From the NCBI GenBank assembly GCA_964522015.1, contig CAZFST010000012.1, positions 17,605 to 41,604 on the forward strand: 24,000 bases of DNA, written 5' to 3'. Position 1 is the first letter of the stretch. The number at the start of each line of letters is the position of its first letter. Source of the stretch: an uncultured Fusibacter sp. GTDB lineage: Bacteria; Bacillota; Clostridia; Peptostreptococcales; Acidaminobacteraceae. The translations under genes were made by a program, and so were the position numbers. This document shows, in pieces, positions 1 to 20,853 of the stretch. Under the pieces are notes generated by a model. The model was given only the letters and a program-made list of their open reading frames with translations. It had not been told where the DNA came from and ran no database searches.

Positions 1-271
1 AAAAGAAGAATGTCACTTTGTACCACTTGTCCCTAAATAACCACATCATAATCATCAACGACAAACCCAAATTAATGAGCATTCTAAAAGTACTATCAGT
101 TGGTATAGTTGAATCAACAAATCGCCCTACAAAAGCAATACCCAATAATGCGGCTATTTGTGACCATTTAGATGACTGATGACGTTTTAAAAACGACATC
201 ATAAAATAGTAACTGGTTAACAATTCTACAAACCCAGAGGTTAGTAACAATACGTTCTTAAACATCACCAT
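1..271 (-). CDS. Partial membrane protein, probably the N-terminal transmembrane sensor region of an AgrC-like histidine kinase; runs off the window
   Basis: Absent from the ORF track because the window edge truncates it. The reverse-strand frame is open from the ATG at 269-271 to base 1 (90 codons, MVMFKNVLLLTSGFVELLTSYYFMMSFLKRHQSSKWSQIAALLGIAFVGRF...MIMMWLF...). AAAGGAG lies 7 nt upstream of the ATG. The sequence has hydrophobic helix-like segments. It starts 24 nt after the LytTR regulator stop, the usual place for the cognate kinase. The kinase domain is outside the window, so the call is contextual. Confidence 0.4.
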   Translation of the reverse strand, partial: MVMFKNVLLLTSGFVELLTSYYFMMSFLKRHQSSKWSQIAALLGIAFVGRFVDSTIPTDSTFRMLINLGLSLMIMMWLFRDKWYKVTFFF

Positions 272-295
272 ATGTAGACTCCTTTGATTGTTTTT

Positions 296-1015
296 CTAAG
301 AAATCTCTGAGATGATTCGCTCTTTAACGCTCTTAATATGTGCCTTGCTCACTGGCAGGCTCACATCACATGCTGCTATGTAGATTTCATTATTACGATA
401 ATAGCTGACTTTTGATGCACTGATTAGGTAGCTTTGATGGCATCTTAAAAACCGAGCCATATCCAGCTTCTCTTCAAGTTCTTGATAAGAGGCATAAAAC
501 TCAATCTCGCCGCCTTTATAGACGAGTTTGATTTTACGGAGATTCTTTTCAAAGTAATAAATATCATAGTATTTTATAGTGAAATTACCTTCTTTTGTGT
601 CAATATGTAAAACTTCGTTTTGATCCTGCTGAATTAATTTTAGTCGCTGGACGACGGTAAGCATGATTTCGTTAAACCTTTTGTAGGCAATGGGTTTAAG
701 CAGGTAATGATAGGCACGCACACCAAAAGCGTCAAATGCGTAATCCTTATACCCGGTGATATATATTAAAATAGGTTCATCTACCAGCTCTCGGATTAAG
801 CGTCCACAGTCAAGGCCATTCATGCCCGGCATCTCGACATCCATCAAAAATACATCATATCGCTTGCCACTTTTCAAAGCCTGTAGCAAGCTTTCAGCAT
901 TTTGATGGACGTCCAGGGTATAGGGTGTCTTTTGTGCCGAAAAGAACATGGTTAGGTAATGTTTTAAAATTTGAACTTGTTCTGGCTGATCCTCGCAAAT
1001 TGAAATTAAGTACAT
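296..1015 (-). CDS. LytTR-family response regulator (AgrA-like)
   Basis: 239 aa. The N-terminal receiver has the acidic start (ICEDQ) and the phospho-acceptor context YDVFLMDVEMPGMNGL, plus LLKP. The C-terminal half has the LytTR pattern (IYYFE...FLRCHQSYLIS...). GGAGG lies 5 nt upstream of the ATG. Confidence 0.9.
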   Translation of the reverse strand: MYLISICEDQPEQVQILKHYLTMFFSAQKTPYTLDVHQNAESLLQALKSGKRYDVFLMDVEMPGMNGLDCGRLIRELVDEPILIYITGYKDYAFDAFGVRAYHYLLKPIAYKRFNEIMLTVVQRLKLIQQDQNEVLHIDTKEGNFTIKYYDIYYFEKNLRKIKLVYKGGEIEFYASYQELEEKLDMARFLRCHQSYLISASKVSYYRNNEIYIAACDVSLPVSKAHIKSVKERIISEIS

Positions 1016-1080
1016 TTTGCCCTCCTAAAGCGTCTGCTATTAGTCGGCTCTTCTCGTTTCTCTACAGAGCTCATGTACTA

Positions 1081-1109
1081 TATTTAGCATACCTAGGCCC
1101 CCCTGTCAA
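1081..1109 (-). promoter_or_regulatory. Sigma-A type promoter for the regulator/kinase pair
   Basis: On the minus strand: TTGACA (1104-1109), a 17-nt spacer, then TAAATA (1081-1086). It sits about 65 nt upstream of the regulator ATG. The near-consensus hexamers suggest activator-independent expression. Confidence 0.5.
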
Positions 1110-1216
1110 TGAATGGTTTTAATAATTTTCTGAAAGTTCGCAACTATCGCTATCAATTCAATGAACCTAGATCAATATCTCAGTTTTCAGCTCATCTTTT
1201 CAGTGAATATCGGCCA

Positions 1217-2233
1217 CTAACAATGGGGGCAATCCACTTCCCGGTGAAAAATATCACTTCTTCCCGCAAGTGTGGACTTATCAATCACAAACACTTGATT
1301 AAATGGAATTTGAGCATCTTCCAATAAAAATCTAAAATGGTCACCCTGTGTATACAGTATGATTCGGGTAATGAAGCCCATCAGGATATTGCGAAAAGCT
1401 AATGACAGACTATTAGGTGCAAAATTCTCTCCATAGGTATTATGCCACTGTGAAAGACATGCTAAACAGCCGCTTTCCTTAGGTATTACCAAGGGTCCCA
1501 TTAGGATCGATTGCTCGTCAATCGTCATAAAAAGGACTCTCTGATTTAAAGTTTGTGCCATTTCATTAATCTCAAATAACCATTCCCGATTTTTCTCTTC
1601 TTTAGGCGCTAAATGCAATACCCAAGGTTTATTGGCAACTTGTGTCTTCACTTCTGATGCCTCAATTACCGTAATTTGATTCCCAAATTTCTTTTGAAGA
1701 TGCACGGACTTCAGTTGACCAAGTTGATTGACTTGAAAAAGTGAATTGTTGAGGTCAGCAACTTCTACGGTTTCTCCATAGTTAACCATCAATACACATC
1801 CTGCACCTTGTTTTCTCAAGAGTTCAACTAAATCCAGTGCCAGTATCCCCAAGCCATGAATGACAAAAGTACTTTGGGCCAGAGGCGTCACATCAAAATG
1901 TGCCGTCGGCAAGAATTTATTGATCTGGAGGGTATCCTGTAAAGTAGCCCAGTCATATGAAAACTTTGCCGCCTCTACACTGATCTCAATAAACATCTCG
2001 GGATATTTACCATACAGTTTGCCCATCAGAGGACCAAAGGTCCCTTCCAGTAGAGCACCAAGTCTGACTGGTAAGCGGATGGCATGTTGTAAAGCTGCTA
2101 AATTGACCGCATAAGGTATGCGTAGTACTGCTAAAGACTTTTCCGTATCATAAACCATCAAATGATCAGAATGATCTTGAAAAAAAACATATCTTGAATT
2201 CCACTGCACAATTTGAACTGCTTCCCCTGACAT
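1217..2233 (-). CDS. E1/ThiF-like (SagC-type) azoline-synthetase partner protein with a CxxC...CxxC zinc site
   Basis: 338 aa. It has a Rossmann-like stretch (VIHGLGILALDLVELLRKQGAG), a GPLVIPKESGCLACL motif typical of E1-like cyclodehydratase partners, and a C-terminal CPHC. GGAGG lies 4 nt upstream. It is the last gene of the biosynthetic operon. Confidence 0.5.
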   Translation of the reverse strand: MSGEAVQIVQWNSRYVFFQDHSDHLMVYDTEKSLAVLRIPYAVNLAALQHAIRLPVRLGALLEGTFGPLMGKLYGKYPEMFIEISVEAAKFSYDWATLQDTLQINKFLPTAHFDVTPLAQSTFVIHGLGILALDLVELLRKQGAGCVLMVNYGETVEVADLNNSLFQVNQLGQLKSVHLQKKFGNQITVIEASEVKTQVANKPWVLHLAPKEEKNREWLFEINEMAQTLNQRVLFMTIDEQSILMGPLVIPKESGCLACLSQWHNTYGENFAPNSLSLAFRNILMGFITRIILYTQGDHFRFLLEDAQIPFNQVFVIDKSTLAGRSDIFHREVDCPHC

Positions 2234-2242
2234 AATGCCTCC

Positions 2243-3082
2243 TTATCCCACCACAAAAACGTACATGGCCGTTTGAAATGGGGCCTCAAGTTTCAGATAA
2301 TCATTGATACGTTCTTCAAAAAAACCACCCAAGGGAACCGATTTCAGACCCATCATTTCGCAGACAAGCATGATGTTTTGACCGATATGGCCTAATTCTT
2401 GGTATATTAGACGATAGGATAGGGAGTTATACTTCTTCTCTATAAATCGCGTATTACCCACTAACACCACTAAAAACTGTGCATCGTCAAATGGATATAG
2501 CCCAAATTCTGAAGCCGATGTCAAGCGGTTAAGTTCACTCAAGTTCACAGGGTGCAGTGCACTTAGAATCGTATTCTTTTCTTCAAGTCTATATGCGCAA
2601 GCCTCTCCCATGACCTGGGAGCGACTTGCCAGCTTTTCAGTCGGTAATAAGTAAATATCAACGGGATAAAACCTCCCCCCCGAAGGATAAGTCCGGGTCT
2701 GTTCCTTTGCATCGCTTTGTCCAAATGCATAGCCCATAAAGTCCAATAGATTCTGGTCTGACAAGGCTGAGTTCTTAAAGTTCCAAGAACTTCTACGCCC
2801 TAACAGGGCCTGACTCAGCGGCATTTCAAAAGGTGACAGTTCAGAAATAGTCGGCAAATGTGCTACCTCCCGACTTGGCACAAAGGGGGTGCTAATCCCC
2901 TTTAACCGGTCTTGATAATCACTTTTAGGCGCTCTTATTGACTGAGTGTGGGGAGAATGTTTTGAGTTCTCGTGATACATGCGGTAGAGATACGTTTGAG
3001 CATCACTTGCCCCCGAAAAATCCCACAGCGCCCCGCCCTTTGGCTGTGGACTTTGTACTTGTATTTCTTTGATCATCATCAT
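2243..3082 (-). CDS. SagB-type / nitroreductase-fold FMN dehydrogenase (short form)
   Basis: 279 aa. RTYPSGGRFYPVDIYLL matches the SagB-type dehydrogenase signature (PSxGxxyPxeiY). Its ATG overlaps the upstream stop (TAATG), indicating translational coupling. Confidence 0.7.
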   Translation of the reverse strand: MMMIKEIQVQSPQPKGGALWDFSGASDAQTYLYRMYHENSKHSPHTQSIRAPKSDYQDRLKGISTPFVPSREVAHLPTISELSPFEMPLSQALLGRRSSWNFKNSALSDQNLLDFMGYAFGQSDAKEQTRTYPSGGRFYPVDIYLLPTEKLASRSQVMGEACAYRLEEKNTILSALHPVNLSELNRLTSASEFGLYPFDDAQFLVVLVGNTRFIEKKYNSLSYRLIYQELGHIGQNIMLVCEMMGLKSVPLGGFFEERINDYLKLEAPFQTAMYVFVVG

Positions 3083-3966
3083 TAACCAACCCGTCTTTCG
3101 TGAATCAAAGCGCTTACTTCAGACAATAAAAACTCAAATTGGGGCGAAACACCTAGTCGATTATTGGTCATGTGAATGTGTGAGGCCAATAGACTATTTC
3201 TTGCAATCATCCCATCAGGATATGTGGTTTGCTGCGTTAAAATTGCCTCTAAAGCCGCTTTAAGACATTGGTGCCACTTGGCATAGGGTGTCTGTGAAAT
3301 GGCACCGATGATCTGTCGCTGCCGTTCTTGATAGACCTTCATATAGTCAAAAATCAGTTTGTTATAGTTTAAGTGTTCAGATTTATGACTTGACCAAATC
3401 TGGCTATAAATATGATAAAACTGACTTTGATTTTCTGCTAAGCAGGCTGCAATTTGAAAAAGGTCTAAGCTGATAATCATTTTTTTGGAGATTGTCATTT
3501 TTGGATCTTTCAATAGCTCTAATACTAAATCACTGGATGCCTCAAATAGACGTTCGGAATGGTCCATGACTCCTTGACCACCATACCGTTCAAACTCTGG
3601 TTCATAAGGTTTTGCAACAACACTGCCTGAAGAAAACCAATAAAGTGCATTGGCTGAAACGGGAACACCATCAAATGTGTGATTTTGATAGTACTGTTCA
3701 GATTCAAGGCTTATATTATTGGGATAGGCGCGATTAAATCGGTCAAAGGCACTTAAAATTGCCATCTCAACACCCATATCCTCAGATTGTGTCTTAATAA
3801 ATCGCAAGCGAATATGGGGACCTCCCTGCCAGTACCGTATAAAAAAATACTGCTGCAATCGCTTATCTTCCTTGAGTGTTTCTAATGCCAGTTGCAGATA
3901 GTCTCGTAAAAAGATATCTTGAATCTCGTATGTGTGAATAAAAAAGTGAAAAGCAAGCCAGTTCAT
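3082..3966 (-). CDS. SpaB_C-fold (thiopeptide-type bacteriocin biosynthesis domain) protein; candidate [4+2] pyridine synthase
   Basis: FFIRYWQGGPHIRLRF matches the hallmark FxRY..GGPHxRLR motif of the LanB C-terminal/thiopeptide-type domain. I place the start at the ATG at 3964-3966 (MNWLAFHFF...), which has AGGAGG 7 nt upstream, rather than the track start at 4011. About 294 aa, similar in size to TclM/TbtD-type enzymes. Confidence 0.6.
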   Translation of the reverse strand: MNWLAFHFFIHTYEIQDIFLRDYLQLALETLKEDKRLQQYFFIRYWQGGPHIRLRFIKTQSEDMGVEMAILSAFDRFNRAYPNNISLESEQYYQNHTFDGVPVSANALYWFSSGSVVAKPYEPEFERYGGQGVMDHSERLFEASSDLVLELLKDPKMTISKKMIISLDLFQIAACLAENQSQFYHIYSQIWSSHKSEHLNYNKLIFDYMKVYQERQRQIIGAISQTPYAKWHQCLKAALEAILTQQTTYPDGMIARNSLLASHIHMTNNRLGVSPQFEFLLSEVSALIHERRVG

Positions 3967-3970
3967 GATG

Positions 3971-5452
3971 TCACCTCCTTTTTGGTAACAGCAATGGTAC
4001 AACATTTCCAATCGGTAAATTCAAATGCCGGCTATTCCCCTTGCCAATTAGTATGGCATAGAGTATCCGTTGATCTGAAGCCAGTAGAAGTGTTGATTCC
4101 AAATATTCATCATTAAAATTCTTAATAGGTCTTGCATATAGATCGAATTGAGAAGCTACTAAACAGATGTACTGTGCTATTTCGCCACTATTTAGATGAT
4201 GGTAATAGCAGTGGTCTTGATCGGACCAGTCCTCCTGATCACTAGCTACAATAAAAATGACCATTGGATGACTTGCCATATTAAAGTAGTGATGAGAATC
4301 ATTTAAAATTTTGTCGGGTTCGGCACTCACTTCCTGACTGTGGCCAATAACATCTGGAAGCGACCTAACAGGCACTAATCCTCCCTGGTTGGTTAATTGA
4401 AAAATATGCATCGCCTTTTCAGAACTTCCCATTTCGGAACTTTCCGTCTCAGGACTTTCCCTTAAAGCAGCATAAATTGACAGTGTCCCAGATGGACCTC
4501 TCTGCTGCTTCAACATTTCTGAAAGTGTACTGAAGAAGTGATGATAGGTTTCTTTGGATAGACTTGTCCAAAGACTATGGAGGCCCATGTGCGTATGATG
4601 TGATTCTCTAGCCTTGATTTGTGCCATCATCCTATCAAGGGAATCTGCCTTTTCTACCCGGTAGGTTTTTGTGACTTGCTTTTGAGGTTGATGGCAATGG
4701 TGCCTCAAAGTTTCAACCTCTTGATACGCCGAGATTTCAGTGGTATAGTCTTCTCGGCGCTCTATGGCCGGTTGGGATATGTTCCCGTGATGCCATGGAT
4801 AAAACTTGGTTAGAGACGAGATTCGAAGCGAAAAAACAACCATCTGGTTATTCGATTTATCTCCAATGGCTGTTAAAAACGCCTCCCGATTTTTGAGAAA
4901 GTCCACATGGTAGGTTAAATCCTCAGCGCTACCCAATAGAAATTTCAATTGACCAAGAATATGACCTGCATCCAGCATGGCAAGTGCTGCACCAAATGCG
5001 CCATAGTACTTCATAATCCGCCATAAATCGGCTACCACAATGATTTCGATATCTGAATCATTGACTTGAGTATGGGTTCCATCCAAAGGTTCTGGATTCA
5101 AACCCGCTAGCCACTCAAAGTCATTTAACTTCGGATTGAATCGTAAAATATTGCCATTGAGGTACAAGTAGCCCTGGTTAGGATGCATATTGCGGGCGGA
5201 AGGGACTGCCTTATGGAAAATATAGGGGTTATCACTTTGCTGGTTCAAGATCCCAAACGTCCAAGTATAAAGTGACTTCAGCCATGACCACTGCGGGTCA
5301 TTGATGCAACTTGAGATAGTCACCGGGTAGACAGCGCCCTTGATATCCGTTATCAGGTGGTCAACAAATGTGACGGATGGTTGCTTTTTATGGGTTTGAT
5401 AGCGCAACCGGGTCATGTTTTGGTAAATAGTCAGTTCTGACGTCGCTTTCAC
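3971..5452 (-). CDS. SagB-type azoline dehydrogenase (long, two-lobed nitroreductase fold)
   Basis: 493 aa. AVPSARNMHPNQGYLYL matches the SagB-type PSxxxxhPxxxY signature. The start is uncertain. The track start is a GTG fused directly to GGAG, which is bad spacing, and the next ATG (5414-5416) has no SD. The gene may be translationally coupled to the YcaO stop at 5457. Confidence 0.65.
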   Translation of the reverse strand: MKATSELTIYQNMTRLRYQTHKKQPSVTFVDHLITDIKGAVYPVTISSCINDPQWSWLKSLYTWTFGILNQQSDNPYIFHKAVPSARNMHPNQGYLYLNGNILRFNPKLNDFEWLAGLNPEPLDGTHTQVNDSDIEIIVVADLWRIMKYYGAFGAALAMLDAGHILGQLKFLLGSAEDLTYHVDFLKNREAFLTAIGDKSNNQMVVFSLRISSLTKFYPWHHGNISQPAIERREDYTTEISAYQEVETLRHHCHQPQKQVTKTYRVEKADSLDRMMAQIKARESHHTHMGLHSLWTSLSKETYHHFFSTLSEMLKQQRGPSGTLSIYAALRESPETESSEMGSSEKAMHIFQLTNQGGLVPVRSLPDVIGHSQEVSAEPDKILNDSHHYFNMASHPMVIFIVASDQEDWSDQDHCYYHHLNSGEIAQYICLVASQFDLYARPIKNFNDEYLESTLLLASDQRILYAILIGKGNSRHLNLPIGNVVPLLLPKRR

Positions 5453-5456
5453 CTCC

Positions 5457-7223
5457 TCAAGGAAAAGGATGGGGACAAAGATTGAGTTGCTCTAACGAGA
5501 TGGCCTTTTCTCTAAGACCTGCATAAACTGGAGCCGTTGCAATTCTTTCAAAATTGATACGCCTGTTTTGGTGCCCAAATGTCATGGTTAACATAGATGG
5601 CACAATGGATTTGACGCAACTTAGGTCCATGGTTTGTGTCAAGGTATTCTCCATATTAGCGATATAGACAGTTGGGTGGTAGGGCTTGAAGCGGCTGATA
5701 ACCTTATCAAGGGTTACGACCTCTCTTGGTGAGTGATTATACCAATCTGGAAATGCTTTTTTAAAAGCCGCCACATTAGGCGTGTTTATTGCAAAATCCA
5801 AGTGATGATGGTGCGCTGCCAGTCCATGAAAATAGACATGTTGTTCCATTTCTCGTACCTTATTTGGCTTGTTCAGCAGCGATGCCATGATCTCTTGTTT
5901 ATCTGGTGTTGCTAGTAATTTGTTATAGACTGATAAAGAAGTGATTATCTCCACAAGTGCGGCTTCCAAAGCCTTTTCTGGGTCCAGATGTGCCCCTGCC
6001 GCTGTATAAGATTTGAGCGCCCCAGTTCCCTCTTTATCCACCACAAGTGCCCAAATTGCAGGTATCTTTGTCTCCAGTGTGATGTTGAAAATTGAAATAC
6101 TGTACCCTTGAGTTTCAATGTATTGGATCATTCTCATAATCTCGACATTATCTAAATCCTCTAGGGTTAAGCGAATTGGTGGCAGTCCGTTATACCAGTG
6201 AACTAAAAAGCTATCTCGCTCAACGACTTCAAATAAACTAAACACAATTGCTTCTTCTAAAGTACCCCCGACAGCACAGCCATTTGAGGTTTCGTACAAA
6301 AAACGGGCTTCAGGTGCGACTTCTTGATTGTCAAAATAAACCGCCTGTTCTGGCAAATAAACCGTCTCTTGCTTAAAATAGTCAAGGCAGGGGGTCCATC
6401 TATAGCTCCCTTTAGCATCATATGGTTTTAGGGCAAAACCTGGTTCTAAAAATTGTTGTTCAGTCGGTAGCGATAGGGTTTCCGGGTTGCAAATTTTCTT
6501 GGTTTTTGATAGTTCTTGATAGCTCCCACACAGAGGCGCTTTTAGATGTGGCACCATGGAGGCATACCGTTCAATCATTTCTAATGCGGCTCCATATTTT
6601 GCATGGGTTAAATCAGGTGTTCTGCCATATGAAAAATACTGTCGTTTACCCATCCTTGAATCAATGCAATACATGGGCATTACCGCTGAAGAGGCGTCTC
6701 TAAAGATTCGTTTACCAATCCCTGTATGGGGATCAATCAGTTGGTGCAAGGCGAATCCTTCTGGAAATAGGGTCTCTATGGTTTTAAATCGCATGGTGTC
6801 TGGAAATGGTCTATGGCGATCAAGGGTTTGTGCCCCTGCGCTGTTTGTCTGTTCTTCTAGTTGGTGGCTTTCGCAGCGGAAGAAGGGAAGTAATAGATGT
6901 CTTGAGAGAGAGCCATCCTCAGTGCGTCTAATCCAAAGTACATTTTCGCAGTCCTTTTCAACGGCTTGAAGTAGTTGGTAATCAACCGGTTGGTGGATGA
7001 GGGCTTGTTCTTGGATCGCAAGTAGACGCTGGTGGTGTTCACTTTCGTTGGCAGCTAGTACTTCCAGTGCGCAGTTCAAACAGGCGGCTCTTGGTTGACC
7101 ATCTGATAAGACACCGATATAGGTATAGCCAAAGCCTTCATAATAAGCTAAAACTCGATCCCCTTTTGACAGCAGGCTATTGTACCCTTCACGACTTAAG
7201 TTATGGGCAATAATATAGGACAT
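5457..7223 (-). CDS. YcaO cyclodehydratase with an N-terminal E1-like extension
   Basis: 588 aa. YETSNGCAVGGTLEEAIVFSLFEVVERDSF is the canonical YcaO ATP/substrate-site motif (SNGxAxG...EA...E..ERD). The N-terminal portion of about 190 aa carries CLNC and FFRCESH. AAGGTGG lies upstream of the ATG. Confidence 0.9.
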   Translation of the reverse strand: MSYIIAHNLSREGYNSLLSKGDRVLAYYEGFGYTYIGVLSDGQPRAACLNCALEVLAANESEHHQRLLAIQEQALIHQPVDYQLLQAVEKDCENVLWIRRTEDGSLSRHLLLPFFRCESHQLEEQTNSAGAQTLDRHRPFPDTMRFKTIETLFPEGFALHQLIDPHTGIGKRIFRDASSAVMPMYCIDSRMGKRQYFSYGRTPDLTHAKYGAALEMIERYASMVPHLKAPLCGSYQELSKTKKICNPETLSLPTEQQFLEPGFALKPYDAKGSYRWTPCLDYFKQETVYLPEQAVYFDNQEVAPEARFLYETSNGCAVGGTLEEAIVFSLFEVVERDSFLVHWYNGLPPIRLTLEDLDNVEIMRMIQYIETQGYSISIFNITLETKIPAIWALVVDKEGTGALKSYTAAGAHLDPEKALEAALVEIITSLSVYNKLLATPDKQEIMASLLNKPNKVREMEQHVYFHGLAAHHHHLDFAINTPNVAAFKKAFPDWYNHSPREVVTLDKVISRFKPYHPTVYIANMENTLTQTMDLSCVKSIVPSMLTMTFGHQNRRINFERIATAPVYAGLREKAISLEQLNLCPHPFP

Positions 7224-7225
7224 AT

Positions 7226-8884: not shown

Positions 8885-9995
8885 AGACTTGAAAACCCCT
8901 TTCTTTCATAATTTGTTGCCACGATGTGTCATATTTAAAAGACACAAAACGAGAAATTGCATAGCATAGAAAGTGCTTTTGTTTAAAGTCAATATTGAGA
9001 AAAATCAAACTGTTATATAGGACATTTGTTAGGGAGCGGTGCACTAAGTGCTCTTGACTCGATGCGACATCTTCCAGTGCCCCTGAGCTCAGTAGATTAT
9101 CATGGAATGAGCTTTCAATAGCAGATACATTGGTTTTCATTTGTTGAATTTGATCTTGAAGGTTATAGAACCCTTCTTCTTGAAAGCCTTTTTGGTTGAA
9201 TAAATCCAATGTTTCTTGGTAGAAATCCTTAAATACTGCCATGGCTTCTTTTAGTGTGTCATCTTCAACTAAGTGACTATCCAGTTGATCCACATCTAGC
9301 TGGACGTACATATCATTAAAATATTGTTCAAAGGCATCCTCAACACCATATTGTTTTGAAAGTGCCAGCATTCCCTGACTATGGGAATAATATTGAAGCG
9401 CACCATACTTTTCACCATGGGGATACAGTAACAAGAGAATTTGAAATATTTTTAGTAATACAATTTTCTTTTCTGTGCCACTGTCGTCATATTTTAAGAG
9501 CACTGTGTTCAATATGGGTTGAAGTTGCATCCGTGCACGGCAGTGCAGGGCAAAGTGTCTAAATGAATTGTAAAGTTGCTTGTAATAACTTGGATTCAAA
9601 TCAGAACGTACTAATTTGCCGTGTAAATTGCCATCAATCGTCGATACTTCTTTTTTCTCCATCTGACCCAGGGTTTGTGCGTGTTTTGTATAGAGTTCCA
9701 ACTGCTTTTCTATGGCCTCAGGACTAAAAGAATGCCCCATTGCAATGATAGCCTGATCAACACCACTTCTCATCTCATTCAAGAGAGCTGCATCACCTGT
9801 TTGTGGCAAAAGATAAATAATCTGATAGTGGGGACCACCATTCCAATCCCGGGTAATATAGTAGGGTGTTTTGATTAACTTCTGGCAAAGCGGTACTAAA
9901 GCTTCTTTTAAAAAGACGCGCTTTTGTCTTTCATCGCCAAAGTGATAAATCTTCATCATGCCAAGATCAGTAAACTGCTCAATGATCACCTTCAA
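8865..9995 (-). CDS. SpaB_C-fold protein; candidate glutamate-elimination half of a split LanB dehydratase
   Basis: 376 aa. YYITRDWNGGPHYQIIY is a diverged copy of the RY..GGPH.R.R motif. The gene lies directly after the large LanB-N gene. The start is a TTG at 9993-9995 with GAGGAGG 7 nt upstream. The nearby ATG at 9998-10000 is only 2 nt from the SD and hits a stop after two codons. Confidence 0.6.
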   Translation of the reverse strand: MKVIIEQFTDLGMMKIYHFGDERQKRVFLKEALVPLCQKLIKTPYYITRDWNGGPHYQIIYLLPQTGDAALLNEMRSGVDQAIIAMGHSFSPEAIEKQLELYTKHAQTLGQMEKKEVSTIDGNLHGKLVRSDLNPSYYKQLYNSFRHFALHCRARMQLQPILNTVLLKYDDSGTEKKIVLLKIFQILLLLYPHGEKYGALQYYSHSQGMLALSKQYGVEDAFEQYFNDMYVQLDVDQLDSHLVEDDTLKEAMAVFKDFYQETLDLFNQKGFQEEGFYNLQDQIQQMKTNVSAIESSFHDNLLSSGALEDVASSQEHLVHRSLTNVLYNSLIFLNIDFKQKHFLCYAISRFVSFKYDTSWQQIMKERGFQVYAPIKT

Positions 9996-10010
9996 TTCAT
10001 GGCCTCCTCA

Positions 10011-10066
10011 ATTGTTATCCTGTTTTAGTGGTTAATCTATTGTTATCCTGTTTTAGTGGTTAATTC
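10011..10066. repeat. Tandem 28-bp duplication spanning the 3' end of the LanB-N gene
   Basis: ATTGTTATCCTGTTTTAGTGGTTAAT occurs at 10011-10036 and again at 10039-10064 (26/26 identical). The right copy encodes the last residues and stop (LTTKTG*), and the left copy is a non-coding echo in the intergenic spacer. Confidence 0.9.
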
Positions 10067-12706
10067 TATTTGGTACTCATGAATATAGGTCTCATCCTGA
10101 TTATTTGGGTAGACTTCTTCAATAGACACCAATGTCCCCGGTTCCCAATCCGACATAAATTCCCGGAATAATAAGGGGCTTGCTAAGTCAATAAACTGGG
10201 GTTTTAAATCAGTTCTGCCCATATTGACATAGTCTATTGCCATATCGCCAGTATACTTTTTCATAAAAAATTGGGTAGGCACCCCTTCAGCCAAGAACAA
10301 GGAAATGATTTCAGCGTAGCGTTCACTGTCACTCAGCAAGGCCTCAGATTGGATATTCCTTATTAGCCAATGACGCCTGATTAAGGTCATGCTGCCATAG
10401 GTGATTCGCGGAATCTTATCTTCGATAAAACAACCCCTCAGCTGATTTTCCTGATCTAAAGCTGCAGTACCCTCTGGAACATCTGATGATTTCAATTTCG
10501 TTTTTAAGAGCTTTAATTGGCTGACATCAAAACGGGTATTACGATTCATCCCAAGTAGTCCTTTTAAAAGGGATGGCATTAACACATAAACCAGTGAACC
10601 AGCAAAGAAAGGGGAAATTTCTTGTCCCTGTGGACCAAATAATTTAACCATTTGCGTTGCTGCATCATACTTAAAATGACAATGGTGAATATTGAGTTCA
10701 TCAGTTGCCCCGGACTGACCACTTAGTGATTCAGAAAATGGTAGCATTAACCGTTTACTTGCAAATGGGATATGAACATTTGCATTAAATCCAAAAGCTT
10801 CCAATACCTCAATCTTATTTTCAGCATCAAATACCTGATTGCAGTACTGTTGGTAATCATTTTGTTCATACACCCAAGCGTAGTCCTTATAAAATCGTGA
10901 AAAGAACGATTGAAAGCCACTATAAACTTTATTCAAGACCATACCATCTGCCCCATGTTGGTAAAAAAAAGTGGTGGAGTAAGACGTATTTGACTGATGA
11001 ACGATCCTTGGGATTCTTTCAATCAGACCGTCTAAAATTGCATCAAAAGCGACGATATCTTGACCTGATTGTTTAGCAGTTTCTATGGCTGTCACAAATT
11101 CTGCTTTCAACCCCATAGTCTGATCAATCACCTCATGGCCTGATGGCGCCAGTGCTGCGAGTCCATCCTTCCAAAGAGAAACGTGTTTACCACCGGTTTG
11201 TGAATAAATGTGATAGACATCAAGATTATCAGCTGCAATTTTATCCTCTCCGTATATTTCATAAAACTGCTTAGAAAACAGTGCATAAATCGGATAACTC
11301 TGGTCTAATATCGCTGTAAAGTGTTGTAGTTTTGAAAGTGTCGCCAGTTCTTGATCACTGACGGTTGTATTCATCAATGTCGATTCTGTTGTCGGGAAAA
11401 ACGTATCTTCATAAATCAACATATCTAAATTGACATCAACCCCTACGAGTATGTTGATTGCTGCCATTTCTGCCTTTACTGCAGAAATCAACTGATAGCG
11501 CTTTGGCCCTTCTACTTGTCCAAATGCCTGTGTCAAATTATGACACACCTGAAAATGCTCTATGATTGCAGCGAGTACACCTTCTTGACTATCTTGAAGA
11601 TCACTCACTTTTTGTACAAATGTGGTGTGAATACATGGCACAAATTCTGAAAGTGTTGTTATGGGAACTAACATTTGCGACTTAATTAGGATATCCTCTA
11701 AAAAATAAGTCGCTTTTTCCTTTGTCACCAATGTTTCTAGATACTTTAAAAGATCGTTATATGACCTTGTACTTTGGCCAATCCAGTCTATAAGATTTGC
11801 CATAATCACATTTTTCTTAATTGTCATATTGTGGTCAATGGATTTATAGACTTTGCCTTTATTCGGGTCTCTTTGGGTTAAAAAATAATAATGTTCAGGA
11901 TATGTTTGGTAAGAAGCCAAACGATAGCTCAGTTGCTCCCTTACAAAGGGTAAATTTAAAATACTATCAAATACCTTGCGATACACAAAATGATTGAGTG
12001 CAGCAGCATGTGCGATTGAATCCTTTTCATGGGGCTTATTTTGAGTATTTTGAAGTGGTGTTTCAACGGATTTTAGAGAATTTGTGGCACTACAAATGCC
12101 AACCTTACCAAGATCAACTGATGTCAGTGTGCTAAAGGGACTTGTTTTTTTGGTAGCACGAGTCAACAGTCTAGCCAATTGATGATCGAGTTTTCGCTGT
12201 TTTGTTTTATGTTCATGGGCTGGTATTGTCAAATACTTACCAAGACTATGATGGAAATCTGCACTGATTAGGGGCAGTGCTTTTGACACCAATGTATCCC
12301 TTTGAAAAAAATCTTGCAACATACGACGGTTTTCTTGGTAGGCTTCTTCAAATGCAGTTGCAAAGGTTTCTGTATTTGCCATGAAAGCCCCATGGGAATT
12401 TTGATACCCTATGACAATTGAGGCGATATCTTCTGGTAACTCATGGATCTGAGTGTCCGTAATCTTTGCCAAGCGAAACATTTTACGTTTGATATTGAGT
12501 AATCGATTATCTTTAGAATTTGAAAAAGCTAGTTCTAATTGTGCACACGCATTTTGCATGACTGTCAATAATGAAGTCTTACTCTCAACGCATTTCCCCA
12601 TATGTGCCAAGAGAGTCGGTGCGTTAAGTGAACGCACCACCCCTTGAGGAACATTGGTGCGCCTTTCAATATAATAGGGAAATAGCAGTTGATTTTTCAT
12701 GGGCAC
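10043..12706 (-). CDS. Lantibiotic-dehydratase N-terminal (glutamylation) domain protein, split LanB type
   Basis: 887 aa, the size of stand-alone LanB-N proteins in thiopeptide/goadsporin clusters. A SpaB_C-fold gene follows immediately, and Ser-rich precursors lie upstream. GGAG lies 8 nt upstream. The assignment rests on size and context, since I could not verify a motif by eye. Confidence 0.65.
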   Translation of the reverse strand: MPMKNQLLFPYYIERRTNVPQGVVRSLNAPTLLAHMGKCVESKTSLLTVMQNACAQLELAFSNSKDNRLLNIKRKMFRLAKITDTQIHELPEDIASIVIGYQNSHGAFMANTETFATAFEEAYQENRRMLQDFFQRDTLVSKALPLISADFHHSLGKYLTIPAHEHKTKQRKLDHQLARLLTRATKKTSPFSTLTSVDLGKVGICSATNSLKSVETPLQNTQNKPHEKDSIAHAAALNHFVYRKVFDSILNLPFVREQLSYRLASYQTYPEHYYFLTQRDPNKGKVYKSIDHNMTIKKNVIMANLIDWIGQSTRSYNDLLKYLETLVTKEKATYFLEDILIKSQMLVPITTLSEFVPCIHTTFVQKVSDLQDSQEGVLAAIIEHFQVCHNLTQAFGQVEGPKRYQLISAVKAEMAAINILVGVDVNLDMLIYEDTFFPTTESTLMNTTVSDQELATLSKLQHFTAILDQSYPIYALFSKQFYEIYGEDKIAADNLDVYHIYSQTGGKHVSLWKDGLAALAPSGHEVIDQTMGLKAEFVTAIETAKQSGQDIVAFDAILDGLIERIPRIVHQSNTSYSTTFFYQHGADGMVLNKVYSGFQSFFSRFYKDYAWVYEQNDYQQYCNQVFDAENKIEVLEAFGFNANVHIPFASKRLMLPFSESLSGQSGATDELNIHHCHFKYDAATQMVKLFGPQGQEISPFFAGSLVYVLMPSLLKGLLGMNRNTRFDVSQLKLLKTKLKSSDVPEGTAALDQENQLRGCFIEDKIPRITYGSMTLIRRHWLIRNIQSEALLSDSERYAEIISLFLAEGVPTQFFMKKYTGDMAIDYVNMGRTDLKPQFIDLASPLLFREFMSDWEPGTLVSIEEVYPNNQDETYIHEYQIELTTKTG

Positions 12707-12712
12707 TCTCCA

Positions 12713-13447
12713 TTATGCTTCGCGATTTTGATGTAGTTTAAAGAATGAAAGACAGATTAGCGTTGTCACGCCTAAGGCAGCAGCATTGATCCAACCAACT
12801 GACTGTTGGTTCCACATGGCAATTGAGATTTGATTCATATGGTAGACCGGATTAACATATACAAAATACCGTGCAATTTTAGGTAGTGCTTCGATTGGGA
12901 ACATCATACCAGAAGCAAATAGAACATATTGAAATCCCAAAATCGTAATTGGTGTTACTTGCTTTGAGTTCTTAAAGAATCCATGAATAGACAAGCTGAC
13001 AATCAACAAAATTACAATCATCACGATAAAGGCTAGGGTAAATGGGACTAAGTTTGCTGTAATCGGCATACTAAAAACTAGTTTTGCGATTCCAATCATC
13101 TCCAGTAAACCAAGCAAAGAAATGATAATACCTCTTACAATGTAAGTGCCGGTGATAAAAAAGATATTTGTTGGCGATACAATAATTCGTTTATAGACAC
13201 CAGTTTCACGATCATTGACACTTTGTAACCCGATATTGAAGAAAATCGTCATAAAAGATATTAGGATCACATAGAGTGGAATATAGGTACTCGCAAATTT
13301 AGTGACGCCATACTGGGCATAAATTGAAGTGAAAATCATGAAAAATATAGCTGGTACTATTAGGATTGGTAGTGCAAACATCGGTTCTCTGAAGAAGATC
13401 AGAAAATCATACTTCACTTGCTTCCAGAAAAAAGCATATTTAGCCAT
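12713..13447 (-). CDS. ABC-2 type transporter permease
   Basis: 244 aa with about six hydrophobic segments. Its ATG overlaps the ATPase TGA (ATGA). Confidence 0.75.
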   Translation of the reverse strand: MAKYAFFWKQVKYDFLIFFREPMFALPILIVPAIFFMIFTSIYAQYGVTKFASTYIPLYVILISFMTIFFNIGLQSVNDRETGVYKRIIVSPTNIFFITGTYIVRGIIISLLGLLEMIGIAKLVFSMPITANLVPFTLAFIVMIVILLIVSLSIHGFFKNSKQVTPITILGFQYVLFASGMMFPIEALPKIARYFVYVNPVYHMNQISIAMWNQQSVGWINAAALGVTTLICLSFFKLHQNREA

Positions 13448-14166
13448 CAGCTCACACTCCTGTCGATCATATCGAAGTAAACATCATTGAAAAACAGCCT
13501 GTTATTTTTGTTTTTTAGATTTTGAGGTGTATCATCAGCAACTACCTTGCCGCCATTTAAGATGATTGCCCGATCACAAAACTTATCTATTTCTTCCATT
13601 GAATGTGTCGTTAAAATGATGGTACTGTTTTTTTGCTTGATGGCATTGATTTTATCCCAAACAATTTTAGAAGCTCTGGGGTCTAAACCAGTTGTTGGTT
13701 CATCCAAAAATATCAGTGCTGGATCGTGTAAAAATGTAATGGCTAAGAGGCAACGTTGCTTCCAGCCCCCAGATAACTTACAAAACTTTGTGTTCAGGTA
13801 TGGCCCTAGCTCAAATTCTTCAATAATTTCATTTACCCGTTCTCTTTTAACGCCGTAAAAACTGCCAAAAAGATCAAGTGCCTCTTTTATCTTAATGTAG
13901 TTGTACATGCCACCTTCTTGAAGAACAATTCCAATTTTTGATCGAATTTCATTCATGTCTTTTTGAACATCCAGACCCATGATTTCTACTGTTCCACGGT
14001 CGTATTTTCTAAGCGTCATGAGAATTTCCATTGTAGTCGTTTTTCCAGTGCCATTGGGTCCAACTAAAGCCACTATTTCACCTTGGTTGATTTCAAAGTC
14101 AATGCCTTTTAAAACCTGTTTATCGCCATACGCTTTGTGTAGGTCTTTAACCTTGACAATTTGCAT
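13447..14166 (-). CDS. ABC transporter ATP-binding protein (export/immunity candidate)
   Basis: Walker A is GPNGTGKTT, the signature motif is LSGGWKQR and Walker B is LIFLDEPTTGLD. Confidence 0.93.
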   Translation of the reverse strand: MQIVKVKDLHKAYGDKQVLKGIDFEINQGEIVALVGPNGTGKTTTMEILMTLRKYDRGTVEIMGLDVQKDMNEIRSKIGIVLQEGGMYNYIKIKEALDLFGSFYGVKRERVNEIIEEFELGPYLNTKFCKLSGGWKQRCLLAITFLHDPALIFLDEPTTGLDPRASKIVWDKINAIKQKNSTIILTTHSMEEIDKFCDRAIILNGGKVVADDTPQNLKNKNNRLFFNDVYFDMIDRSVS

Positions 14167-14202
14167 TTTTTACCTTCTCTCTCTATCCGCTTTCAGATGA
14201 CA

Positions 14203-14224
14203 GGGGTTGGGTTTAACCAACCCC
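14203..14224 (-). promoter_or_regulatory. Intercistronic stem-loop between the precursor genes and the ABC/biosynthetic genes
   Basis: GGGGTTGG-GTTTAA-CCAACCCC forms a perfect 8-bp GC-rich stem. No U-run follows it on the minus-strand transcript, so it is more likely an attenuator or mRNA-stabilising element than a full terminator. Confidence 0.5.
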
Positions 14225-14274
14225 ACTCATCATTGTTAATTCACCTTTTCAGTTCTAGGTAAACTCAAGGCTAC

Positions 14275-14463
14275 CTATTCAGCAGCGGCCTCTACACTCC
14301 CGCCACCACAGCTGACGCATGATGACGAACCGCAGCATGAGCAGCTTCCGCAAGAAGATGAACCTGATGTTGCACCTGTTTCATTTAAAAGCGCCGCTTC
14401 TGAAATTTCCATGATTTCTAAATCTTCGATTGCTACCAATGTGTTGTTTTTTACTTGATCCAT
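14275..14463 (-). CDS. RiPP precursor peptide, copy 2 (S56 variant)
   Basis: 62 aa: MDQVKNNTLVAIEDLEIMEISEAALLNETGAT / SGSSSCGSCSCCGSSSCVSCGGGS / VEAAAE. AAGGAG lies 9 nt upstream. The stop codon is TAG. Confidence 0.9.
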   Translation of the reverse strand: MDQVKNNTLVAIEDLEIMEISEAALLNETGATSGSSSCGSCSCCGSSSCVSCGGGSVEAAAE

Positions 14464-14558
14464 ATGTTTGTTCTCCTTTGTTTGTGTAATTTTAGCTCAT
14501 TATTTATTTAAGGGTTGAGTTTACGCTTGCATTGACAATTAAAAACTGTTTGGTATGA

Positions 14559-14747
14559 TTATTCAGCAGCGGCCTCTACATTGCCACCACCGCAGCTAAC
14601 GCATGATGACGAACCACAGCATGAGCAGCTTCCGCAAGAAGAAGAACCCGATGTTGCACCTGTTTCATTTAAAAGGGCTGCTTCTGAAATTTCCATAATT
14701 TCTAAATCTTCGATTGCTACCAATGTGTTGTTTTTTACTTGATCCAT
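14559..14747 (-). CDS. RiPP precursor peptide, copy 1 (N56 variant)
   Basis: 62 aa, identical to copy 2 except N56 for S56. It has the same RBS. The stop codon is TAA. Confidence 0.9.
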   Translation of the reverse strand: MDQVKNNTLVAIEDLEIMEISEAALLNETGATSGSSSCGSCSCCGSSSCVSCGGGNVEAAAE

Positions 14748-14923
14748 GTGTTTGTTCTCCTTTAGTTTGTTTGTTAAATGCTCGGGATTGGTTTATATGA
14801 TGCTTCTGGTGATACTTCTGATGCTTGTTTCTTACTGATTGTTCTTGATCATAAACTTGGTTTTCTGTCACCTCCAATCCTGATTTCTCAGTCCCAATTG
14901 TTCTTGCGGTTGTTTACAATTTG

Positions 14924-14984
14924 ACTATACCGCGTTTCAAATCAGGAATCTTTAATATGGAAGCAATGACCTTTCAAATGTAAG
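14924..14984 (-). promoter_or_regulatory. Candidate LytTR-activated promoter of the precursor/biosynthetic operon
   Basis: On the minus strand: CTTACATTTG (14975-14984), 12 nt, TTCCATATT (14954-14962), 2 nt, a weak -35 AGATTC (14946-14951), 16 nt, then -10 TATAGT (14924-14929). The two boxes are 21 bp apart, the canonical LytTR direct-repeat phasing. Confidence 0.4.
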
Positions 14985-15085
14985 TTTTGGTCAACAACCT
15001 CTGTAAAACGGCTTATTTGAAGGGTTTCATGATTTAACAACTCTATATCTGCAATAAAATATCGCTTTCAACTGAAATCATTCAG

Positions 15086-15721
15086 TCAAAAGCGATAAGG
15101 GTTAAAGAGATAATTGTTTTTGTACTTAACTAAGGTTAAAGCTACCATCAATATGGATATGACAGCCACGTTTACGTAGACTGACAGTGATTCAATTGTT
15201 GCACCGCTTAAAATCATGATGACAAGGAAGGCTGTAACCCGGTAAGTTTGCTTTCTTTTCAAAACCCAACTTTGGTCCACCTCTTTATCAATTCGATCAT
15301 CTTTGTTACCATTTTCAGCATTGTCCACTTGATTATCGACATCATCTTTGTTCGCAAATTGATAGATTAAAACCAGTGCCACAACGAGTAATGCCATCGC
15401 AAAATATCTGCTCGTGTTAAATGTCATATTAACACCCATCCAAGTAGTTAGAATACCTAACGATGTGGTCACGATAGTACAACGGGTCAAAGTTGCCATA
15501 TGAAATCCGCCAGTCGTCTGGCGGAGAGTGGCAAAGATGATCATAAAAATGATCATTTCAAGTAATTTATGTGTTAATATCCCGGCAATCAAAAGACATA
15601 AGATGATTTGTAATGTGTTCATGCTCACACGGAGGCCATATTGGATTAGATCCATTTGATCCTTTGTGTATGTGCCAATCAATTGCTGGGCAGTATGATC
15701 ACTTTGATTTTGGCGTTTCAT
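15086..15721 (-). CDS. agrB: AgrB-family membrane peptidase (accessory gene regulator B)
   Basis: A polytopic membrane protein with GGFHMATLTRC, which gives the AgrB catalytic His and Cys at i and i+7. I place the start at the ATG at 15719-15721 (MKRQNQ..., 211 aa). The track start at 15763 is a TTG with no SD. Confidence 0.85.
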   Translation of the reverse strand: MKRQNQSDHTAQQLIGTYTKDQMDLIQYGLRVSMNTLQIILCLLIAGILTHKLLEMIIFMIIFATLRQTTGGFHMATLTRCTIVTTSLGILTTWMGVNMTFNTSRYFAMALLVVALVLIYQFANKDDVDNQVDNAENGNKDDRIDKEVDQSWVLKRKQTYRVTAFLVIMILSGATIESLSVYVNVAVISILMVALTLVKYKNNYLFNPYRF

Positions 15722-15809
15722 ATAAAAATCCCCATTTTGGCTGATTAGTTGCTGATGCCCCAACTTTAAGCAATGTGTTCATCGTAATTTGAGTAAGTGT
15801 GATTTTCAT
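15699..15809 (-). CDS. Unannotated 36-aa ORF; candidate AgrD/FsrD-like autoinducer propeptide
   Basis: MKITLTQITMNTLLKVGASATNQPKWGFLYETPKSK. AGGAGG lies 5 nt upstream of the ATG at 15807-15809. The ORF overlaps the agrB start by 23 nt. The C-terminal ETPKSK resembles the E-x-P-K tail of AgrD/FsrD propeptides as I recall them. It is below the track's size cutoff. Confidence 0.4.
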   Translation of the reverse strand: MKITLTQITMNTLLKVGASATNQPKWGFLYETPKSK

Positions 15810-15882
15810 AATAGCCTCCTAGAATTATGCCCATTGGCATTTGAGTTTTGCAAGCCACTTTGTTGGCCTCTTGCTTAATGTA

Positions 15883-15943
15883 ATCATACCCCAATAGTAT
15901 TTTTTAATCAGATGGATGTACGAATTGTCCATTGAAATGTAAG
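15883..15943 (-). promoter_or_regulatory. Candidate LytTR-activated promoter of the agrD-like/agrB unit
   Basis: On the minus strand: CTTACATTTC (15934-15943), 12 nt, GTACATCCA (15913-15921), 2 nt, -35-like TGATTA (15905-15910), 16 nt, then -10 TATGAT (15883-15888). The geometry matches the precursor promoter. Confidence 0.4.
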
Positions 15944-15960
15944 AATTGTGTGTTAATTTT

Positions 15961-16000
15961 AAAAAACCACCTGTACGTATTACCGCACAAGTGGTTTTTT
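15961..16000 (-). terminator. Rho-independent terminator after the HD-domain gene (bidirectional shape)
   Basis: The minus-strand RNA reads AAAAAACCACUUGUGCG-GUAAUA-CGUACAGGUGGUUUUUU, a long stem with G-U wobbles flanked by an A-run and a U-run. It marks the right border of the island. Confidence 0.8.
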
Positions 16001-16006
16001 GTTAAT

Positions 16007-17870: not shown

Positions 17871-18446
17871 TTAGTAGTTTGTTTCTTTGATTTCAAAGTA
17901 GCTTTGTGGATGTTGACATGCAGGACATGTAGAAGGGGCAGTTTCACCTTCGTGAACATAACCACATTTGTCGCATTTCCATCTCTCAACCGTTTCTTTA
18001 GAAAATACAGTTTCAGATTCAACATTTGTAGCCAGCTTCAAATAACGCTGTTCATGCTCTTTTTCAATTTTAGCAATCACAGTAAATGCAGCAGCAACTT
18101 GTGGGAAACCTTCTTCTTTAGCAACAGCAGCAAAGTGAGGATACAACTCAGTGTATTCTTCGTTTTCTCCAGCTGCAGAAGCCAATAAATTTTCAAGGGT
18201 TGTGCCAACTTTACCAGCAGGGTACATAGCTGTAATTTCAACGCCGCCACCTTCTAAAAAGCTAAAGAAACGCTCAGCGTGTACACGTTCGTTCTCAGCT
18301 GTTTCAAGAAAAAGATTTGAAATTTGGTGGTAGCCGTCTTTTTGAGCCTGTTTTGCAAACATTGTGTAGCGATTTCTCGCCTGTGATTCGCCAGCAAATG
18401 CTTTTAACAAGTTTTGTTCTGTTTGAGTCCCTTTAATAGAAGCCAT
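17871..18446 (-). CDS. rbr: Rubrerythrin
   Basis: The N-terminal diiron four-helix domain reads TEQNLLKAFAGESQARNRY. The C-terminal rubredoxin-like part has CDKCGY...CPACQHP. AAGGAG lies 7 nt upstream. Confidence 0.93.
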   Translation of the reverse strand: MASIKGTQTEQNLLKAFAGESQARNRYTMFAKQAQKDGYHQISNLFLETAENERVHAERFFSFLEGGGVEITAMYPAGKVGTTLENLLASAAGENEEYTELYPHFAAVAKEEGFPQVAAAFTVIAKIEKEHEQRYLKLATNVESETVFSKETVERWKCDKCGYVHEGETAPSTCPACQHPQSYFEIKETNY

Positions 18447-18546
18447 TCATGTTCTCCTTATCTCTACAAAATGTTATGCGCCCGAGTCGGCCATGTTATC
18501 TGTTTTGCTTCTTATGCCTTATTTTTTATTTCTTACGTCTTATAGC

Positions 18547-19062: not shown

Positions 19063-19109
19063 ATTGTGCCTCCAATTATAAGTTGCGTTTGGTTGTTGGC
19101 TTTCTTAAT

Positions 19110-19484: not shown

Positions 19485-19553
19485 GATGGCCTCCTATTAA
19501 AATACAATACAGAATGCACCCATTAGTGGGTGACTCTTATGACTGCCAGATGG

Positions 19554-19985: not shown

Positions 19986-20000
19986 CTGAGATCACGCTGA

Positions 20001-20162: not shown

Positions 20163-20190
20163 AGTAGACTCCTTCTTGCACATTAAGTGC

Positions 20191-20218
20191 TATAAAAGAA
20201 GCGCCTTTCGACGCCTCT
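20191..20218 (-). terminator. Rho-independent terminator after rubredoxin copy 2
   Basis: The minus-strand RNA reads AGAGGCGUC-GAAA-GGCGCUUCU, a 9-bp stem including two G-U pairs with a GNRA-type loop, followed by UUUUAUAG. Confidence 0.6.
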
Positions 20219-20844: not shown

Positions 20845-20853
20845 TAATCTAGA

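Follow-up and report, generated by a model that had tools for sequence, protein, structure and literature searches.

The locus described here raises the question of how a thiopeptide biosynthetic cluster is switched on, and whether the genes which flank it supply the signal. The window, i.e., the whole stretch of DNA that was analysed, comprises 24,000 nucleotides of an uncultured Fusibacter sp. (assembly GCA_964522015.1, contig CAZFST010000012.1, positions 17,605 to 41,604), and from its left edge to ~20.2 kb every gene is carried on the minus strand. Profiles from Pfam and NCBIfam identified a thiopeptide cluster of 13.5 kb (1217-14747), situated between an end carrying an AgrB-family peptidase and an end carrying a regulator and a kinase. 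The order of transcription is a 36-residue open reading frame (ORF), agrB, a hairpin terminator, two precursor genes, an ATP-binding cassette (ABC) transporter pair, eight biosynthetic genes, the regulator gene and the start of the kinase gene. It is proposed, on the basis of gene content and promoter sequence, that the flanking genes form a cluster-situated agr-type peptide quorum-sensing circuit which would gate the thiopeptide cluster, a reading to which a probability of roughly 0.65 is given. The identity of the agr module alone is hardly in doubt. With the agr kit divided between the two ends of the cluster, and the same kit present in related clusters, the antibiotic is probably made only when the cell senses its own signal.

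The agrB gene (15086-15721, minus strand; ORF 15763/15721-15086) encodes a polytopic membrane cysteine peptidase of 211 residues which matches Pfam PF04647 at an E-value of 4.9e-26 (91.7 bits, cut-off 23). An initial annotation had placed an AgrB-family peptidase with a GGFH...C pair upstream of the precursor genes, and this motif was found to be genuine: in an alignment of the protein with 138 other family sequences, His74 and Cys81, seven residues apart, occupy columns which are invariant (139/139), while Arg67 is conserved in 135 of the 139. The catalytic pair of Staphylococcus aureus AgrB is H77/C84. Hydrophobic stretches were located at residues ~30-66, 101-125, and 162-201 by a hydropathy scan, which is a crude method. 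The protein also contains an acidic low-complexity insertion (NKDDVDNQVDNAENGNKDDRIDKEVDQS) at about residues 124-153 (window 15262-15352) which is not found in typical AgrBs of ~190 residues. A word-index search for relatives returned only the protein itself and its 82% identical counterpart in a sister strain, and an exhaustive search returned none between that counterpart and ~30% identity, which leaves no graded series of relatives in which AgrD variants could be compared.

At the opposite end, downstream of the last biosynthetic gene, lies the LytTR regulator which the initial annotation had recognized. The gene (296-1015, minus strand) encodes an AgrA-type response regulator of 239 residues possessing both Response_reg (E 1e-15) and LytTR (E 2e-17) domains, the latter matching the S. 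aureus AgrA structure 3bs1 (E 6.8e-6). Its score against the NCBIfam AgrA equivalog is far below the cut-off (52 vs 400). The regulator is followed by an AgrC-type (HPK10) sensor histidine kinase, whose first 90 codons lie within the window (1-271, minus strand) with the rest past its edge. The full protein of 465 residues was obtained from a public contig which shows no difference from the window in the 11,015 bases compared and runs on past its left edge. About six hydrophobic segments occur in its N-terminal 210 residues, followed by SPOB_a (E 3.6e-8) and HATPase_c_5 (E 7.9e-18) domains; the H-box reads RHDFNNHL, the GHKL ATPase is of the HATPase_c_5 type, and the single match among solved structures is the kinase module of S. 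aureus AgrC (6e52). The ORF at the left edge, previously suspected to be an AgrC-like kinase, is thus indeed a histidine kinase. Its score against the NCBIfam AgrC equivalog (46.8 bits vs a cut-off of 500) means that the assignment is one of family type and not of orthology.

The regulator and kinase genes may possess a promoter of their own at 1081-1109 (minus strand; TTGACA, 17 nt, TAAATA), which was read from the sequence. A consensus promoter scan ahead of the pair found nothing convincing, and this promoter is therefore regarded as weak. In the interval from the last biosynthetic gene to the regulator no terminator was found, so that transcripts may also read through from the biosynthetic genes. 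Outside the window, ~5 kb past the kinase (L001:15733-16629), a LytTR protein of 146 residues without a receiver domain is followed by a membrane protein of 150 residues without a family match, a layout which recalls LytTR regulatory systems.

The locus had at first been described as an agrBDCA operon pulled apart by the biosynthetic genes. The 13.5 kb separating the two halves is real; however, the arrangement is merely one of several encountered in related clusters. Two details also needed correction, as the regulator precedes the kinase and the 36-residue ORF upstream of agrB had been missed. This ORF (MKITLTQITMNTLLKVGASATNQPKWGFLYETPKSK; 15699-15809, minus strand) is preceded by an AGGAGG ribosome-binding site 5 nt ahead of its ATG, lies on the same strand as agrB with its final 23 nt overlapping the agrB start, and is annotated as a gene on public contigs.

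Evidence for regulation comes from the promoter regions. Upstream of the agrD-like ORF is a LytTR-type operator (15916-15949, minus strand) consisting of the direct repeat ACAATTCTTACAT / ACAATTCGTACAT. The repeat units are 13 nt in length, are identical at 12 of 13 positions and are spaced 21 bp start to start, which none of 100 and none of 200 shuffled sequences reached. A spacing of 21 bp is the known geometry of LytTR regulators, with the AgrA repeats of S. aureus having a geometry of 9 bp + 12 bp. A candidate -10 element, TACTAT (15899-15894), is found 16 nt past the proximal repeat. The sister strain differs at two positions of the 8-nt spacer and at none of either repeat.

The agrD-agrB pair is separated from the precursor genes by an intrinsic-terminator-like hairpin (15060-15097, minus strand) which straddles the agrB stop codon and has a 17-bp stem followed by UUUUAUU, with a folding energy of -22 to -23 kcal/mol and a z-score of -5.6. 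Beyond it, a second and weaker operator-like site, CCAAAACTTACAT-N8-TCATTGCTTCCAT (14957-14990, minus strand), is present upstream of precursor gene 1, again with 21-bp phasing. This site was identified by scanning the whole window on both strands (~48,000 positions) with a pattern derived from the agrD promoter alone. Apart from overlaps of the agrD-promoter site with itself, 14990-14957 was the top-scoring position (17/24), and it lies within the 338-bp gap between agrB and the precursor genes; the odds of the top site falling in this gap on the right strand by chance are ~1%. It is followed 27 nt on by TATAGT (14929-14924) and is identical in the sister strain. A further terminator hairpin (15960-16006) follows the HD-domain gene upstream of the agr genes, and in the sister strain (L002:1776-1860) it is accompanied by a second, similar hairpin in tandem, resulting from an insertion of ~30 bp.

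Comparison with the sister strain indicates that the module is maintained. The AgrB proteins are 82.5% identical, with most of the differences falling within the acidic insertion, and the 36-residue ORF is identical at 34 of 36 positions with its C-terminal 17 residues invariant. Against a synonymous divergence of ~0.2-0.4 in neighbouring genes, the ratio of non-synonymous to synonymous substitution rates (dN/dS) is lowest in the kinase (0.015, residues 1-345), followed by the regulator (0.028) and AgrB (0.24), and all three are under purifying selection between the two strains. Just two substitutions fall within the 230 residues of the kinase sensor domain, in keeping with the lack of change in the C-terminal half of the 36-residue ORF.

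Related clusters provide the second line of evidence. A query of species-representative genomes with the single YcaO protein found no close relatives, while an alignment query did retrieve relatives. Identity to the nearest YcaO relatives is 36-43%, and their clusters have both gene order and precursor family in common with the window, the biosynthetic gene order being kept in loci L006-L012 and L014. For co-occurrence counts, loci were retrieved by YcaO similarity alone, the window was excluded, and loci with a LanB-type gene were taken as thiopeptide-type. An AgrC-type kinase was found to flank 9 of the 21 thiopeptide-type loci and not one of the 62 YcaO loci of other types (Fisher p 9e-7), and AgrB was present in four of the 21 and in none of the 62 (Fisher p 0.003).

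The arrangement of these genes varies. In L007 the cluster is followed by agrB-agrD-kinase-regulator; in L008/L089 the order is agrB-regulator-kinase, precursor, agrD, precursor, cluster, and then a second regulator-kinase pair; and in L090/L091 it is agrB-regulator-kinase, precursor, agrD, cluster. Several loci are cut short by contig ends: the cluster of L009 and L010 is followed by a regulator-kinase pair before the contig stops, contigs L011 and L012 start ahead of a regulator-kinase pair followed by precursors, in L006, at the contig end, a LytTR-only protein immediately precedes the precursor, and L014 begins at the precursor. A regulator-kinase pair is also found in L018. From these arrangements it can be seen that the pair is present wherever the relevant flank is visible, and AgrB occurs in all four of the clusters with a visible flank past this pair (L007, L008, L090, and the window). 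Full agr sets with canonical AgrDs also flank the Bacillales thiopeptide clusters L043 (Lysinibacillus xylanilyticus) and L047 (Virgibacillus sp. MSJ-26), whose cores differ from those of the window's family (e.g., five copies of ...SMIGNGCSTCGSSSCCSS). The two pairs of L008 (465-2446 and 15799-17792), which stand on both sides of its cluster, are ~26-27% identical to each other.

Phased repeats recur at the precursor genes of these relatives. The precursor genes of L006 (three units), L008, and L090 are immediately preceded by significant repeats with 21-bp phasing, L008 and L090 having the same TGGCAATAAA box; in L012 and L018 such repeats are marginal. At the precursor promoters of L007, L010, L011, L043, and L047 no significant operator was found. 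The initial annotation had suggested that the metabolite is produced under autoinducer control, and we infer the same from the operator at the agrD-agrB promoter and its weaker second copy, the recurrence of the module and the phased repeats of related loci.

The circuit that these observations suggest would work as follows. The upstream operon, which has a terminator and an activator-type promoter to itself, would supply a 36-residue pro-peptide together with AgrB, and AgrB would cut the pro-peptide ahead of YETPKSK to give a small hydrophobic signal (...KWGFL). Once exported, this signal would be sensed by the AgrC-type kinase, which would phosphorylate the AgrA-type LytTR regulator. Binding of the regulator to the 21-bp-phased repeats is predicted to be strong at the agrD-agrB promoter, which would produce positive feedback, and weaker at the promoter of the precursor gene pair, the first genes of the 13.5-kb biosynthetic and export operon, which would thereby be activated. 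This activation of the precursor promoter, the chemistry of the signal and the role of the 36-residue ORF as AgrB substrate are proposals which go beyond the observed protein identities, repeats, terminator and recurrence.

A canonical AgrD was sought in the 338-bp gap between agrB and the precursor genes, in the rest of the window and in 10 kb past the kinase, and none was found; the 36-residue ORF is the sole candidate. It precedes agrB, whereas the usual position of agrD is downstream. It resembles the AgrDs found beside AgrB in related loci in that Y-E/Q-(x)-P comes after a run of hydrophobic residues. Five reference AgrDs, ending in ...MCGFWGFYEPEMPES (L007), ...SSCMFWMYQPKQPKAL (L089), ...SSCAFWFYQPQQPKAL (L090), ...NCCLLGIYEPSLPDEL (L043), and ...SCSIFVYEPEFPEEL (L047), have the form C-x4/5-Y-E/Q-P. 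The candidate ends in ...NQPKWGFL followed by YETPKSK, in which WGFLYETP is similar to the WGFYEP of the L007 AgrD. When the ends of small ORFs in 16 loci were scanned for YE.?P, all matches were located beside AgrB bar one false match. The canonical agrD genes (...NSSCMFWMYQPKQPKALKKLRKF) at L089:6930-7064 and L090:12934-13068, which lie between or just after precursor genes, are absent from the public annotation.

The 36-residue ORF is likely an AgrD, albeit an atypical, cysteine-free one, and the odds are somewhat in favour of it being the substrate of AgrB. That a cysteine-free signal gates the cluster, with AgrB turning ...PKWGFL-YETPKSK into a product other than a thiolactone, is a tentative and on balance doubtful proposal. 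Candidate products would be a lactam through the side chain of Lys-25, the residue at the usual Cys position; a 9-residue lactone through Thr-21, which is the size of the ring in the gelatinase biosynthesis-activating pheromone (GBAP); or a linear peptide.

Several observations weigh against the circuit. As regards the signal, the 36-residue ORF has no Cys at all, with Lys and not Ser at position -5 where Cys usually stands, and it gave no match to the Pfam and NCBIfam AgrD models even at E<=10. Against a profile of the five cluster-linked AgrDs it scored E=9 (rank 11/1782), and its YETPKSK, similar as it is to YEPxxP/YQPxQPK, forms a tail of just 7 residues. As regards the operators, the site at the precursor promoter is weak, at 17/24 and with a repeat which is not significant by itself, and its distance to the -10 element is 27 nt vs 16 nt at the agrD promoter. 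Among the related loci, no AgrB was found within 1.7 kb upstream of the regulator-kinase pair of L018. Finally, the agr proteins of related clusters are just 20-30% identical to those of the window vs ~40% for the enzymes, which suggests that the modules may have been recruited more than once and not inherited with the cluster. This divergence reflects either fast evolution, as in signal-receptor pairs, or repeated recruitment, and both would argue for a functional link.

The best surviving alternative is that the kinase and regulator sense the thiopeptide or a fragment of it, either as autoinduction of the nisin/subtilin kind or as induction of export or immunity, with AgrB and the 36-residue ORF forming a separate or decaying accessory. 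Such an arrangement would account for the regulator-kinase pair being the most constant companion of these clusters, for its occurrence in L018 with no AgrB within 1.7 kb, for the second pair of L008 which lacks a second AgrB, and for the atypical AgrD candidate. It fits poorly with the presence of AgrB in all four clusters whose flank past the pair is visible, and with an AgrB which keeps its catalytic residues under purifying selection. Moreover, the clearest operator fronts agrD-agrB, which is the hallmark of an autoinducing peptide (AIP) feedback loop, and the HPK10 kinases known to date sense unmodified or thiolactone peptides. This explanation is considered improbable.

Much less credence is given to AgrB being a tailoring enzyme of the thiopeptide which trims the precursor of its variable C-terminal follower (S/NVEAAAE), perhaps closing a ring as well, and makes no signal. 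The adjacency of agrB to the precursor genes would suit such a role, as would the natural chemistry of AgrB, which is the removal of C-terminal tails, the variable tails that precursors of the family bear past an invariant SCG and the lack of a canonical AgrD in the regions searched. Related clusters with AgrB nevertheless have canonical Cys-containing AgrDs (L007, L089, L090, L043, and L047), some of them alongside tailed precursors, and the precursors have no Y-E/Q-P junction motif while a plausible substrate ORF overlaps agrB. A function of AgrB as precursor tail peptidase was a serious candidate as long as L008 and L090 seemed to lack an AgrD; with a canonical agrD located between or after the precursor genes of L008 (L089) and L090, it was rejected as the main interpretation.

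Least credible of all is that the agr genes serve to control something else and just happen to lie beside an inserted cluster, since the greater divergence of the agr proteins than of the enzymes and the possible separate promoter of the regulator-kinase pair, which would agree with accidental adjacency, are opposed by an association which recurs across many lineages and arrangements and at none of the 62 non-thiopeptide YcaO loci, by agrD being embedded among precursor genes in two lineages and by phased repeats upstream of precursor genes.

The proposed agr circuit can be compared with several known systems. It shares with S. aureus agrBDCA, with its P2/P3 promoters, the four protein roles, the AgrB His/Cys pair, a kinase that matches AgrC and a regulator whose LytTR domain matches AgrA, as well as the 21-bp-phased direct repeat in the promoter for signal synthesis. 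Unlike the S. aureus genes, those of the window do not form one operon, as agrD and agrB are followed by the 13.5-kb cluster and only then by the regulator ahead of the kinase; the pro-peptide is shorter and contains no Cys, no RNAIII-type effector was seen in the window and the proposed target is the adjacent antibiotic cluster.

The fsrABDC system of Enterococcus faecalis is agr-like and produces a non-thiolactone signal, GBAP, which has a 9-residue Ser-lactone ring and derives from a pro-peptide with a basic ...KPKK tail. Its genes are contiguous, its regulator gene has a separate promoter, as that of the window may have, and it controls proteases. A Thr21-Leu29 ring in the window's peptide would also contain 9 residues, and the YETPKSK tail is also basic, although the formation of a lactone by this peptide is pure conjecture by analogy. 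Class II bacteriocins such as plantaricin and sakacin are regulated by an induction peptide, an HPK10 kinase and a LytTR regulator, with direct-repeat operators ahead of the bacteriocin operons. The kinase and regulator families and the logic of an antimicrobial gated by an autoinducer are the same as proposed here; the class II signals differ in having double-glycine leaders and in leaving the cell through a C39 ABC transporter, AgrB being absent, and the product of the window is a heavily modified thiopeptide.

In Paenibacillus polymyxa it has been established experimentally that an agr AIP regulates clusters for ribosomally made, post-translationally modified peptide (RiPP) and non-ribosomal peptide (NRP) antibiotics, and agrD co-occurs genome-wide with biosynthetic clusters (PMC12180512). 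In contrast to the present locus, that agr system is a global regulator and is not embedded in clusters. For a Lachnospiraceae UBA3401 genome, cyclic-lactone autoinducer genes were noted alongside a thiopeptide cluster, and the bacteriocin was suggested to be under quorum control (PMC11352710); this is a remark at the level of annotation, with no gene-by-gene analysis, operators or comparison. The initial annotation was not aware of LytTR/peptide-pheromone control as an established feature of thiopeptide clusters. In the one library searched, no study was found in which agr or LytTR control is analysed for a thiopeptide cluster, which is not proof of absence.

Autoinducer control of a bacteriocin would in itself be unsurprising to a specialist. 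More likely to be of interest are the repeated occurrence of agr modules embedded in thiopeptide clusters, the location of agrD among precursor genes in some of them and the presence of a cysteine-free AgrD candidate beside an intact AgrB. How thiopeptide clusters are switched on in Firmicutes is largely uncharacterized, and many of them stay silent under laboratory conditions. Should these clusters be gated by a dedicated agr circuit, the cognate peptide, whether synthetic or produced by expressing the agrD-like ORF with agrB, would offer a direct means of activating the cluster, and relatives in Clostridia and Lachnospiraceae would be candidates for the same approach. As a recurrent accessory of thiopeptide clusters, sometimes with agrD among the precursors, agr modules would also be a feature usable by cluster-mining pipelines. 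The cysteine-free AgrD candidate, the intact AgrB and the conserved sensor domain together offer a test case for AgrB-made rings beyond (thio)lactones.

Precursor genes 1 (14559-14747) and 2 (14275-14463), both on the minus strand, encode proteins of 62 residues belonging to one family, in which the core SSSCGSCSCCGSSSCVSCGGG of the first is followed by NVEAAAE. They differ in a single residue, GGGS in gene 2 vs GGGN in gene 1 ahead of VEAAAE. The product of gene 2 matches Pfam Thiopep_pre PF19409 (E 1.4e-10, 41.2 bits, cut-off 23.5) and NCBIfam thiazolyl_B NF033400 (39 bits, cut-off 30). Members of this precursor family have a leader ending in ...EASLLGETAATSG and a core of SSSCGSCS(C/T)CGS(S/T)SC.SCG, and their tails past the invariant ...SC.SCG (window, L006-L014, and L090) vary in length from 1 to 14 residues. 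The duplication (14275-14747) coincides exactly with the break point of public short-read assemblies of the same strain.

The precursor genes are followed by an ABC transporter ATPase identified by profile match (14166-13447, minus strand) and an ABC-2 permease (13447-12713, minus strand), a pair (12713-14166) likely to serve in export or immunity. The eight biosynthetic genes (1217-12706, minus strand), assigned from the same profile collections, encode a LanB-N-like protein of 887 residues, a pyridine-synthase-like protein of 376 residues, a protein of 552 residues without a family match, a YcaO protein of 588 residues, a dehydrogenase of 493 residues, a Lant_dehydr_C / thiopep_ocin protein of 309 residues, a SagB-type protein of 279 residues and a leader-binding or docking-like protein of 338 residues. 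The cluster therefore includes a SagD-type YcaO (TIGR03604, 266 bits, cut-off 219), two SagB-type dehydrogenases, parts of a LanB-type dehydratase (Lant_dehydr_C, E 8e-44; thiopep_ocin, 107 with a cut-off of 48), and pyridine-synthase-like proteins. The Lant_dehydr_N match is marginally sub-threshold (26.9 vs a cut-off of 28), and the matches to the pyridine-synthase equivalog are partial and sub-threshold.

An Rfam scan of the window identified no RNA family. The right-hand part of the window (17871-23898) carries an oxidative-stress island typical of anaerobes, with genes for rubrerythrin, ferritin, desulfoferrodoxin, a Fur-family regulator, rubredoxin, and a CsoR-type metal-sensing repressor. 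The island also encodes a fusion protein of 866 residues which combines flavodiiron (ODP), flavodoxin, and rubredoxin-like domains with an oxidoreductase of the NAD(P)H:rubredoxin-reductase type.

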